From the NCBI GenBank assembly GCA_035308365.1, contig DATGGU010000012.1, forward strand, positions 93,161 through 125,160: a stretch of 32,000 bases of DNA, in the 5' to 3' direction. The translations under genes and the position numbers were made by a program. Of the stretch, positions 16,772 to 18,498 are shown one piece after another (within the stretch, counting starts at the first letter, position 1; each line of letters starts with the position of its first letter). Source of the DNA: Streptosporangiaceae bacterium. GTDB taxonomy: Bacteria; Actinomycetota; Actinomycetes; Streptosporangiales; Streptosporangiaceae. A model generated the notes under the pieces. It saw only the letters and a list, made by a program, of their open reading frames with translations. It was not told the DNA's origin and made no database searches.

Positions 16772-17434
16772 ATGAAGCTCCTTGAGACCCGGGCATCCCG
16801 CTACGACCGCGGGATGCGGTTGCTCACCTTCGGCCGGATCGGCGGGCTGTACCGGGCGATCGCCGGGCACATCCCACCGGGCAGCGAGGTCCTGGAGATC
16901 GGCTGCGGCACCGGCGGGCTCACCGCCGAACTGGCCGGCCGAGGCTGCCGGGTGACCGCGGTCGACCGCTCCCCCCAGATGCTCGCGATCGCCGCGCGCA
17001 AGCTGGCAGAGATCGATACGGCCGCGAGCCCGCGGCTGCTGCCCCTGTCGATCACCGGCCTGGACCGGACGTTCGGTGCCGGCGCGTTCGACTACGTCGT
17101 GAGCTGCCTGGTACTCAGCGAGCTGACGGCCACAGAGGAACGCTACGCGCTGGACTGCTCCGTCCGGCTGCTGCGCCCGGGCGGTGGCCTGGTGATCGCC
17201 GACGAGGTGCTGCCAGCGAACCCGGTGCGCCGGGTGATCTATCATGCGACGCGGCTGCCGGTGGCGGCACTGGCCTACCTGCTGACCCAGACGTCGAGCC
17301 ATCATCTCCGCGACATCGACGGCAAGCTGCGCAGCCGGGGGCTGGAGGCGGTCGAGCGGACGACGTTGCAGCACGGCTCGTTCGCCATCGTGGCGGGGAG
17401 GAAGCCGGCATGCCGTCTGCAGCCCCAGAAGTGA
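16772..17434 (+). CDS. Class I SAM-dependent methyltransferase
   Basis: SAM motif I is VLEIGCGTGGLT. It also has the acidic post-I loop (VTAVDRSPQML) and LLRPGGGLVIAD. Start is ATG at 16772 (GTG at 16754 as an alternative). The 3' end overlaps the next gene by 25 nt. Confidence 0.8.
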   Translation: MKLLETRASRYDRGMRLLTFGRIGGLYRAIAGHIPPGSEVLEIGCGTGGLTAELAGRGCRVTAVDRSPQMLAIAARKLAEIDTAASPRLLPLSITGLDRTFGAGAFDYVVSCLVLSELTATEERYALDCSVRLLRPGGGLVIADEVLPANPVRRVIYHATRLPVAALAYLLTQTSSHHLRDIDGKLRSRGLEAVERTTLQHGSFAIVAGRKPACRLQPQK

Positions 17435-18498
17435 CGGCGGCCCGCGCCGCCGCCACGGTGCCACCGCACCGGGCCTGGCTGCGTGAGCTGGTCCAGTTGC
17501 TGTTCCGCTCGTTTCCCTTCCATACCGAGCCGGGACTGCGCGTCTTCGGCACCCCCGGCCGGTCGGCTCCGGTGTTCGTAACCTGCAATTTCGACCATAC
17601 GGTCCGGATGGTCTCCCGGGTGCTCGGCCGTTATGACTGCTATCTGCTGGTCGCCCCGACGGGTGGCATGAACGTGTGGTGCGCGTCGGCCGGGGGTCAT
17701 TTCGGCACCGACGAGGTCGAGGCGGCCATCCGGCTCAGCAACATCGAGGACTTCGTCGACCACCACCGGTTAGTGCTGCCCCGGCTGGCGGCTCCCGGAG
17801 TGGATACAAAGGAGCTGCGCCGCCGGACCGGCTGGCGGGCCGTGTTCGGCCCGATCGAGATCGGCGATCTGCCGGCCTGGCTGGAGGGTGAATTCCCGCA
17901 CCTGGTGCCGGATCAGGTGCGCTTCCCGGCCCGCCGGCGTGCCGCGATGGGCGTCGGTGCCGCGCTGTGGCCAGCCGGCCTGATCGGCTTCCCGGCCGGC
18001 CTCATCGAGGGCTGGCAGACCGGGATGCTGGCCGCCGCGCTCGGCTATCTGCTGTCGGTACTGTTCGCGCTGGCCTACCCGTACCTGCCCGCCGAGCCGG
18101 GGCTGCGGCAGGCGGCTGCGCTGGGCGGGCTGCTTGGCGCCGCCGCGGCGGGCGGAGCCGTGGTCAGCGGCGGTGCGGTAGCGGGCCCGGTGTTCTGGGG
18201 GATCGCCCTGGCCGCACTCGGCCTGCTGATCGGGCTCGACTTCCCGAGCTGGTCGCCGACCGACGTGTGCAAGCAGCAGTTGCTGTGCTTCTTGTACCCG
18301 GCAACGCTGGCGCCCGCCGGGTTCCTGCCCACCGTGGACGAGCCGGCCTGCATCGACGGCTGTGACATCTGCGTGCGGATCTGCCCCAAGGGGGCGCTCA
18401 CCCTGAACGAACGGAGCAAGGCGGAACTCATCGACCCGGCGGACTGCCTGAGCTGTTACGCCTGCGTCCAGCAGTGCCCGGTCGACGCCATCAGCTGA
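17410..18498 (+). CDS. Fused HgcA-like corrinoid membrane protein plus HgcB-like 2x[4Fe-4S] ferredoxin
   Basis: N-terminal PVFVTCNFDHTVRMVSRVLGRYDCYLLVAPTGGMNVWCASAGGHFGT aligns to the HgcA/CFeSP corrinoid domain and its N(V/I)WCA(A/G)GKGTFGT cap helix. About 4 TM helices follow. The C-terminus is CIDGCDICVRICP ... CLSCYACVQQCP. ATG at 17410 lies 8 nt after GGGGAGGA. Confidence 0.8.
   Translation: MPSAAPEVTAARAAATVPPHRAWLRELVQLLFRSFPFHTEPGLRVFGTPGRSAPVFVTCNFDHTVRMVSRVLGRYDCYLLVAPTGGMNVWCASAGGHFGTDEVEAAIRLSNIEDFVDHHRLVLPRLAAPGVDTKELRRRTGWRAVFGPIEIGDLPAWLEGEFPHLVPDQVRFPARRRAAMGVGAALWPAGLIGFPAGLIEGWQTGMLAAALGYLLSVLFALAYPYLPAEPGLRQAAALGGLLGAAAAGGAVVSGGAVAGPVFWGIALAALGLLIGLDFPSWSPTDVCKQQLLCFLYPATLAPAGFLPTVDEPACIDGCDICVRICPKGALTLNERSKAELIDPADCLSCYACVQQCPVDAIS

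Follow-up and report, generated by a model that had tools for sequence, protein, structure and literature searches.

Within a window of 32,000 nucleotides from a Streptosporangiaceae bacterium (GenBank assembly GCA_035308365.1, contig DATGGU010000012.1; all positions are those of the window), we analyzed a gene for an HgcAB-like fusion protein, a single chain that combines a corrinoid-binding domain, a membrane domain and a ferredoxin. The gene is the centre of a putative five-gene operon that encodes a small membrane protein with a Cys-Cys pair, the S-adenosylmethionine (SAM)-dependent methyltransferase CpaM, the HgcAB-like protein, a P1B-type ATPase with a TPC motif, and a MerB-like protein. 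We interpret it as a module in which a Cys-ligated corrinoid, charged from SAM by CpaM, would pass methyl groups to a soft metal, with mercury as the most probable candidate, and we assign this reading a probability of about one half. It builds on the architecture and family of the protein, its exclusion from true HgcA and from corrinoid iron-sulfur proteins, its pairing and natural fusion with CpaM, the conserved gene order that it forms with the pump and the Cys-Cys protein, and the frequent adjacency of mer genes; from these features we infer the chemistry, the methyl acceptor, the direction of transport and the membrane topology.

Architecture and family assignment of the HgcAB-like protein

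The gene was found exactly where an earlier note, made from the sequence alone, had placed it (nt 17410–18498, plus strand, ATG start, 362 aa), and its G+C content at third codon positions (GC3) of 0.88 is in the range of real genes in this window, which has a G+C content of ~70%. The protein passes the NCBIfam model of the HgcAB-like fusion protein (NF043039, 301.8 bits versus a cutoff of 285), with residues 25–362 matching profile positions 2–350 of 350. It fails the models of HgcA (NF040863, 130.8 bits versus 275, with a match limited to residues 37–180), of HgcB (NF040864, 38.3 bits versus 99) and of the gamma subunit of the corrinoid iron-sulfur protein (CFeSP; PRK04165, 76.2 bits versus 306). 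It almost certainly belongs to the HgcAB-like fusion family and is thus paralogous to the mercury methylase HgcA/HgcB; both this family and its partner CpaM (NF043040) are already curated by NCBI. Judging from sequence comparisons, this is no chance resemblance, since close homologues (62–99% identity) recur in many actinomycete genomes and metagenomes. All of them come from actinomycetes or actinomycete-like metagenome contigs, and the carriers include Streptomyces sp. CNQ-509, Lentzea flaviverrucosa, Actinocrispum, Rhizocola, Actinophytocola, and a Micromonosporaceae metagenome-assembled genome.

The chain begins with a CFeSP-type corrinoid-binding domain (residues ~36–160, nt 17515–17889, plus strand as for all parts of this gene), detected as a match to Pfam CdhD (PF03599; residues 36–157, E 1e-14). 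It is followed by four transmembrane (TM) helices (residues 174–281, nt 17929–18252) and by a 2x[4Fe-4S] ferredoxin domain (residues ~307–362, nt 18328–18495) recognized by the Fer4 families of Pfam, of which the 4Fe-4S dicluster families match residues 307–362. In the AlphaFold model (mean pLDDT 70.5) the corrinoid domain is well defined and Rossmann-like, and the TM helices occupy residues 174–200, 202–225, 232–252 and 258–281 with pLDDT mostly 75–96. Pfam, NCBIfam, the model and its fold match thus all agree with the earlier description of one chain with an HgcA-like corrinoid and TM part and an HgcB-like ferredoxin. That note had also counted about four TM helices, as in HgcA; the AlphaFold model confirms the number, whereas the likeness fails, as HgcA has been described with five (PMC11588087). 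Because the TM helices number four, the ferredoxin and corrinoid domains are predicted to share one side of the membrane, the cytoplasmic one.

The cap helix NVWCASAGGHFGT (residues 88–100, nt 17671–17709, with the Cys91 codon at 17680–17682) lies within the stretch GGMNVWCASAGGHFGT (residues 85–100) and has the core NVWC91ASAGGHFGT. Its span from N to T measures 13 residues, equal in length to NVWCAAGKGTFGT of the true HgcA representatives, and the gap-free alignment proposed earlier was reproduced, with the Cys kept, A/G-G-K replaced by S-A-G and the Lys lost. Residues N88, V89, W90, C91, A92 and G95 are invariant in an alignment of 45 family members. Compared with the HgcA signature N(V/I)WC(A/S)(A/G/S)GK, to which NVWCAAGKGTFGT conforms, the window protein reads NVWCASAG, a string absent from the accepted motifs of true HgcA (NVWCAAGK, NVWCASGK, NVWCAGGK, NIWCAAGK, NIWCAGGK and NVWCSAGK; PMC10087281). 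Sequence alignment puts Cys91 opposite Thr374 of the Carboxydothermus hydrogenoformans CFeSP, which leaves intact the idea that this Cys could be a lower axial ligand of the corrinoid. The announced cluster motifs of the ferredoxin domain are likewise present as C314-x3-C318-x2-C321-x3-C325-P326 and C346-x2-C349-x2-C352-x3-C356-P357, and all eight Cys are invariant among the 45 members. The chain ends in ...CPVDAIS, six residues past the last cluster Cys and with no later Cys; the vicinal Cys pair at the C-terminus of HgcB is missing, as had been noticed.

These features bear on whether the protein is a functional mercury methylase, that is, a fused HgcAB orthologue with the mechanism of HgcA/HgcB and with methylmercury as its product. 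The NVWC core and the Cys ligand are common to both, the top fold match is the published HgcA model 9a0b_A over the corrinoid and TM domains (281 columns, 30% identity), and identity to one true HgcA representative reaches 44% in the corrinoid and TM region. Moreover, most sister loci have mer genes beside the module, and the missing Cys-Cys pair might be supplied in trans by the small membrane protein (see below). However, besides failing both the HgcA and HgcB cutoffs and falling outside the HgcA clade (see below), the protein combines a cap helix that is not an accepted methylator motif with four instead of five TM helices, and it lacks both Cys73 and the C-terminal CC, which are required in HgcB (PMC11588087). 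Fused HgcAB proteins were described by Podar et al. 2015, and Pyrococcus furiosus made no methylmercury (PMC4646819); Methanococcoides methylutens, which also has a fused HgcAB, was methylmercury-negative as well (PMC5893877), in accord with what the earlier note says of such proteins. The fused clade has since been treated in the literature as a sister group of unknown function (PMC10087281). On this balance a methylase of the HgcA/HgcB kind seems quite unlikely.

The next fold matches are CFeSP large subunits, which cover the corrinoid domain only (27–28% identity, rmsd 2.5–3.4 A over 127–152 columns), and in the sequence search solved CFeSP large subunits align only over their C-terminal ~125 residues (chain residues ~315–440). 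These significant matches, together with the placement in CdhD/PF03599, would be expected of an ordinary CFeSP of the Wood-Ljungdahl (acetyl-CoA) pathway or of its decaying remnant. Against that origin, the N-terminal cluster and TIM-barrel domains are absent, a Cys stands in place of Thr374, a TM domain and a ferredoxin are present, and the window contains no genes for CO dehydrogenase/acetyl-CoA synthase (CODH/ACS); strong conservation of the gene and its high GC3 speak against decay. A CFeSP identity is refuted by model score, domain content, cap residue, tree and gene context, and we regard it as practically out of the question.

Position of the corrinoid domain among HgcA-like proteins

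An exhaustive profile-free search with residues 25–300 yielded 980 representatives at E<1e-3. A tree of the corrinoid domain was built by neighbour joining, a distance method only, on 128 columns of 136 sequences; two CFeSP segments formed the outgroup and support was taken from 200 bootstraps. The sample does not include the experimentally tested archaeal fused proteins. The window protein falls inside an actinomycete clade in all 200 replicates, and true HgcA with the GK motif form a monophyletic group in 178/200, with the window protein outside. The CFeSP segments split off in 200/200 replicates, so that in the phylogeny suggested earlier as a check the domain does not group with CFeSP. The smallest clade that holds the actinomycete group includes a true HgcA in only 19/200 replicates; deep branching among the HgcA-like clades is not settled by neighbour joining on 128 columns. 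The actinomycete clade has its own cap-helix variant, NVWCA(S/A)AGGHFG, and a distant clade of Dehalococcoidia type (~35% identity) has NVWCAAKGGNF.

Further HgcA-like proteins were seen among the representatives. One group (P0112, P0131, P0132, P0146, P0183, P0187 and P0195; ~470–500 aa) has the cap helix N(I/V)WC(S/A)S(L/M)(A/S)(G/H/N)HF, a C-terminal two-cluster ferredoxin and an additional N-terminal domain of ~150 aa, and another set (P0076, P0104, P0110, P0119, P0124 and P0125) has a single cluster motif and a basic tail, (K/R)(L/V)N(L/M)(L/M)G(K/E)R…. As far as these sequences tell, the HgcA-like superfamily is far wider than 'HgcA plus fused HgcAB'.

CpaM and its natural fusions with HgcA-like domains

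The gene immediately upstream encodes CpaM ('corrinoid protein-associated methyltransferase'), a class I SAM-dependent methyltransferase (nt 16754–17434, plus strand, GTG start) that scores 254.5 bits with NF043040 versus a cutoff of 180. Its start was placed by alignment to orthologues beginning (M/V)SSFVFMK, and its 3' end overlaps the HgcAB-like start by 25 nt. CpaM is located directly upstream of the HgcAB-like gene in 12 of the 13 other actinomycete loci on which our synteny counts are based, and the methyltransferase is also kept immediately upstream in the distant clade. The single exception, locus L016, is cut by a Tn7-like insertion (L016:1216–9831) with TniQ, TniB, an rve transposase and two integrases, by which cpaM has been removed and the HgcAB-like gene truncated to 308 aa.

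In at least 16 representatives CpaM is fused N-terminally to the HgcA-like domain. Eight of these fusions possess a ferredoxin tail (P0069, P0078, P0080, P0106, P0122, P0127, P0140 and P0143), and eight lack it and end in the TM region (P0100, P0117, P0126, P0133, P0141, P0148, P0159 and P0190). The fusions are 524–644 aa long and come from archaeal and bacterial metagenome bins, among them one Ranarchaeia archaeon and one Anaerolineae bacterium. When five of them were scored with the curated models, all five passed as CpaM and four as HgcAB-like, the ferredoxin-less P0141 falling short at 274.9 versus 285. An origin as assembly artefacts was rejected, as the fusions turn up independently in assemblies of NCBI, JGI, ENA and Logan, and some of the contigs reach 409 kb. 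Natural fusions are Rosetta-stone evidence, and they make it likely that CpaM works together with the corrinoid domain, in which case CpaM would charge the corrinoid.

The alignment of CpaM orthologues contains the SAM motif GCGTG and no conserved Cys beyond it, which argues against direct, ArsM-like metal methylation by CpaM itself. At the Pfam level, the protein resembles quinone methyltransferases of the UbiE/MenG type.

The TPC-type pump and the Cys-Cys membrane protein

Nine nucleotides past the stop codon of the HgcAB-like gene starts the gene of a P1B-type heavy-metal ATPase of an unusual subtype (nt 18508–20511, plus strand, 667 aa; TIGR01525, 504.2 bits versus a cutoff of 346.25) with an invariant DKTGT phosphorylation site. 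Its fourth TM helix (TM4) reads I-T296-P297-C298-A-F, with TPC (nt 19393–19401) instead of CPC, and TPC is present in 10/10 orthologues. TM5 contains YN and TM6 LFH627C, of which the His is found in 9/10 orthologues and Cys628 in the window copy only. An N-terminal GLFGEADLSQERL motif and C44/M45 are conserved among the 10 aligned orthologues, none of which has an HMA/CxxC domain at the N-terminus. The TM4 motifs described for such pumps are CPC, CPH, SPC, PCP, SCA and CSC, with APC in CtpG (PMC13460109); TPC is outside this list, and comparison with published motifs and solved structures gave no assignment to a P1B subtype.

The first gene of the putative operon encodes a small membrane protein (nt 16284–16748, plus strand; its true start codon is uncertain) with an N-terminal vicinal Cys-Cys pair (C17-C18, nt 16332–16337), after which come a stretch rich in Arg and some three hydrophobic helices. 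It has no Pfam or NCBIfam match, and its ORF ends five nucleotides before the CpaM start. Homologues occur directly 5' of CpaM in most of the 13 loci (L001–L005, L012–L015 and L017); the CC pair is invariant in an alignment of eight sequences and was found also in L005, L014 and L017. Just 5' of this gene lies a promoter-like site, CTGACA-18-TATCAT (nt 16229–16258, plus strand), which agrees with the consensus at 10/12 positions. Two such sites were found versus 0.5 expected in shuffled sequences, a weak indication. An Rfam scan of the window, L012 and L017 gave no match of any kind, and hence no cobalamin riboswitch.

The P1B ATPase gene is located directly 3' of the HgcAB-like gene in 13/13 loci, with gaps of 8–105 nt across 58–85% sequence divergence. 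A divergent GntR-type regulator is present in 11/13 loci, and a DUF169 (PF02596) gene follows the pump in 10/13, for example in L012 (L012:12191–12898) with equivalents in L001–L004 and L013–L016. Another DUF169 gene (L008:11292–12008) was observed two genes 3' of the HgcAB-like gene in a distant, pump-less locus, and its recurrence suggests a recurrent partner. The layout of the window, with the MerB-like gene right after the pump and neither a GntR-type regulator nor DUF169, is repeated in L017, which comes from a related organism and has flanking genes 68–83% identical to those of the window.

The constancy of these neighbours matters for a further explanation, in which the methyl acceptor of CpaM and the HgcAB-like protein would be no metal but, for instance, a quinone, a lipid of the membrane or some small metabolite, and the pump and mer genes would be uncoupled neighbours on mobile resistance islands. 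In the distant clade the pair has no metal genes nearby and is accompanied by HdrA/HdrD-like oxidoreductases, acyl-CoA dehydrogenases, HpaB and DUF169, which suits such an acceptor, as does the likeness of CpaM to UbiE/MenG. Transposase, integrase or TraG-type conjugation genes stand by some loci, and in the window, L017 and L018 the module is found among genes of natural-product type. However, a pump contiguous in every locus over such divergence represents operon-level conservation and no hitch-hiking, the Cys-Cys protein is conserved alongside it, and a cap helix with a Cys thiolate is otherwise known only from the metal methylase HgcA. Overall we consider a non-metal acceptor with uncoupled metal genes unlikely.

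Transposase and TraG-type conjugation genes were observed flanking L012–L014; these, together with the Tn7-like element of L016, suggest that the module travels on mobile islands. A tblastn search against 72,556 plasmids returned a ferredoxin fragment only and thus gave no sign of carriage on plasmids.

Linkage to mercury-resistance genes

The last gene of the putative operon, 116 nt past the pump, encodes a MerB-like homologue of organometal (C-Hg) lyases (nt 20627–21319, plus strand). It is divergent from canonical MerB, with 92.7 bits in the Pfam MerB model versus a cutoff of 27, and fails the NCBIfam MerB equivalogs (56 versus 193 and 50 versus 200 bits). It shares the motif AMCAIDALG (C-x-x-D) and a Cys further on with the MerB of L012 as well as the MerB-like neighbours of merA in L002, L013 and L015; these residues may be the counterparts of Cys96, Asp99 and Cys159 of the R831b MerB enzyme. 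A 52%-identical orthologue follows directly after the pump in L017, and MerB-like genes of the same type adjoin merA in L002, L004, L013 and L015. A phmmer search of the protein against the Protein Data Bank retrieved no solved MerB. All that it gave were weak hits on engineered tandem dimers of cyanovirin-N (whole-sequence E 4.5e-7, with no single domain significant), which are probably due to chance and underline the distance from canonical MerB.

Further downstream lies a gene for an ArsR/SmtB-family metalloregulator with four conserved Cys (nt 24537–24917, plus strand; NF033788, 84.6 bits versus a cutoff of 55), which scores 68 bits with a CmtR-like model, under its cutoff of 150. It is 56–76% identical to ArsR genes beside merA in L001, L003, L004, L012, L013 and L015 and is probably, though not demonstrably, linked to the operon. 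Directly 5' of it we observed a predicted 181-aa membrane protein with a CGYDGC motif (nt 23933–24478, plus strand), matched by no Pfam family and lacking homologues in the other loci, which could be a metal transporter or a sensor partner. A merA gene was considered for the gap after the ArsR gene (24.9–26.3 kb), which actually holds an NAD-dependent epimerase on the minus strand.

Of the 13 other loci, 7 have merA and 8 have merA and/or merB at a distance of no more than 10 kb. The merA copy in L012 is a bona fide MerA (TIGR02053, 581 bits versus a cutoff of 454). No Pfam-recognizable MerT, MerP, MerC, MerE or MerF genes were found in the mer islands beside the module, which leaves room for another view, namely that the operon serves mainly in the transport and handling of Hg or other soft metals for MerA/MerB in islands without MerT/MerP, with the corrinoid protein in a redox or sensing role. 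The module would bring to such islands a pump together with a Cys-Cys membrane protein that resembles Hg carriers, and a ferredoxin domain is at hand. This view leaves unexplained why a SAM methyltransferase is obligate and sometimes fused and why the cap-helix Cys is invariant; in addition, P1B pumps normally export from the cytoplasm. A mainly transport-related role is, in our estimate, improbable.

The gene context, which the earlier note had called informative, proved richer than it had claimed, with a conserved pump, a Cys-Cys protein and mer genes.

Proposed mechanism and its weighing

In the reading that we favour, methyl transfer by a SAM-charged, Cys-ligated corrinoid, the 2x[4Fe-4S] ferredoxin domain would reduce the bound corrinoid to Co(I), and SAM-bound CpaM would methylate this Co(I). 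In the resulting CH3-Co(III), the thiolate of Cys91 would be the lower axial ligand. The methyl group would then pass at the membrane to an electrophilic, thiophilic metal offered by the Cys-Cys protein; in the actinomycete clade this is most probably Hg(II) or some other soft metal. The co-transcribed TPC pump would carry the metal species across the membrane, its direction and substrate being conditional on this scheme, and the MerB-like lyase, with MerA in sister loci, would handle organomercury and Hg(II). A reverse reaction, in which the corrinoid takes a methyl group from methylmercury, was set aside, as a SAM-dependent methyltransferase partner does not fit it.

Several observations weigh against this scheme. 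The window contains no merA, no GntR-type regulator and no DUF169 gene, and the absence of the pump, mer and other metal genes near the pair in the distant clade means that the general acceptor of the family may be a non-metal, with the metal link of actinomycetes lineage-specific. Two fused proteins tested in vivo, those of P. furiosus and M. methylutens, gave no methylmercury, and the cap-helix Lys of methylators as well as the Cys73 and C-terminal CC of HgcB, needed for Hg methylation, are missing here. Purified HgcAB uses SAM without a separate methyltransferase, so that this precedent implies no need for CpaM. The substrate of the pump is not readable from its motifs or from solved structures, since CopA (289 bits), the P1B-4 pump 7qbz (282 bits) and ZntA (252 bits) match it about equally well. 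Confidence of the AlphaFold model is low in the cap helix and the ferredoxin domain (pLDDT <50), and Hg methylation beside a demethylase looks like a futile cycle. With all this considered, a soft metal as the acceptor in the actinomycete clade has in our view even chances, and mercury specifically is a tentative and rather doubtful assignment.

In a more far-reaching reading, these aerobic actinomycetes would have a full system to make a methylated soft metal, export it and protect themselves from it. Hg(II) received from the Cys-Cys protein would be methylated by CpaM and the HgcAB-like protein, its methylated form would leave through the TPC pump, and the MerB-like protein and MerA would protect the producer; the single-Cys TM4 site of the pump would suit CH3Hg+, which has one free coordination position. 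The idea that methylmercury arose as an antimicrobial (bioRxiv 10.1101/2022.11.21.517362) fits such a system. It is a speculative extension that we judge rather improbable. If true, it would mean oxygen-tolerant biological methylation of mercury or another metal outside hgcAB, organized like an antibiotic cluster.

Other genes of the window

The region upstream of the operon (1948–15642) resembles a cluster for a terpenoid or glycoside natural product. It includes a squalene-hopene-cyclase-like gene (1948–3651, minus strand), a GT4 glycosyltransferase (6247–7257), a polyprenyl synthase (7301–8332, minus strand), a P450 (9348–10529), an MFS_3 exporter (12146–13450), a UDPGT-type glycosyltransferase (13595–14728) and a GT8 gene within 14440–15642. 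The MFS, UDPGT and P450 genes, together with a PhnD-like gene (123–734) and an ORF at 673–1893, are 68–83% identical to genes flanking the operon in L017, where their order differs. The gene of a 197-aa hydrophobic protein (15639–16232, plus strand) has a gene-like GC3 of 0.87 and stops shortly ahead of the promoter-like site; the protein matches no family and was not found in any of the related loci. Downstream of the operon, an AIR-synthase-related protein (AIRS/AIRS_C), an MreB-like protein and a 4'-phosphopantetheinyl transferase follow in a row (26345–29230, plus strand), with no obvious link to the operon.

Novelty and significance

The literature searched gave no paper on NF043039/NF043040 or 'CpaM', and no description of the actinomycete operon, its position beside mer genes, the natural CpaM fusions or carriage by aerobic actinomycetes; previously, the Streptomyces CNQ-509 protein had been mentioned as 'HgcA-like', and Lin et al. 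reported just one aerobe with a fused gene. The locus represents no new fold or family; its value is that tractable organisms can now be used to ask what fused HgcAB-like proteins do and whether aerobes can methylate metals through them. Fused HgcAB-like genes are common in metagenomes and have been set aside for want of a known role, and the two tested organisms made no methylmercury. Where the methylmercury of oxic waters and soils comes from is likewise a long-standing question. The locus ties this family to a SAM methyltransferase through natural fusions, to a dedicated metal pump and to mercury-resistance genes, in aerobic, culturable and genetically tractable actinomycetes in which the role can be tested. 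Should the acceptor be mercury or another metal, surveys that judge methylation potential from genes would need revision, and should it be a non-metal, the pair would represent a new class of membrane-bound SAM/corrinoid methyltransferases.

Comparison with known systems

The closest known relatives are the other members of the HgcAB-like family (P. furiosus, M. methylutens, Kosmotoga and Atribacteria), with which the window protein shares the one-chain architecture and the cap-helix Cys; it passes the curated cutoff of the family and has CpaM adjacent. The clade of the window differs in consisting of aerobic, B12-producing soil actinomycetes with their own cap-helix variant, and in having a dedicated TPC pump and a Cys-Cys protein, in most cases also DUF169 and a GntR-type regulator, with mer genes in the vicinity.

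HgcA/HgcB of Pseudodesulfovibrio mercurii ND132 share with the window protein a CFeSP-derived corrinoid domain, the cap-helix Cys, a TM domain and a two-cluster ferredoxin. SAM is likely the ultimate methyl source in both; for genuine HgcAB, Zheng et al. 2024 demonstrated that SAM, and not methyl-folate, is the methyl donor, with a methyl-Co(III) intermediate ligated by a Cys thiolate (PMC11588087). The window protein differs by AG in place of GK, four TM helices, a fused ferredoxin without Cys73 or a CC tail, a separate SAM methyltransferase as constant companion, and aerobic hosts.

CFeSP (AcsC/CdhE) with its methyltransferase MeTr is alike in the homologous corrinoid domain and in a separate methyltransferase that loads Co(I). 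In contrast to CFeSP, the window protein has no N-terminal [4Fe-4S] and TIM-barrel part and no small subunit, is membrane-anchored and carries Cys for Thr374; its presumed donor enzyme is a class I SAM methyltransferase and not the methyl-folate-dependent MeTr, and the CODH/ACS context is missing.

Actinobacterial mer operons are represented in the sister loci by merA (TIGR02053), merB and an ArsR regulator, and in the window by the MerB-like and ArsR genes, whereas merA is missing from the window and the module is not a described mer component in the literature searched. Finally, ArsM resembles CpaM in its class I SAM fold, with weak ArsM-type matches (40–58 bits), and in a theme of metal(loid)s detoxified or weaponized by methylation. 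CpaM lacks conserved metal-binding Cys and stays far under the ArsM cutoffs, and methyl transfer would here proceed through a corrinoid.

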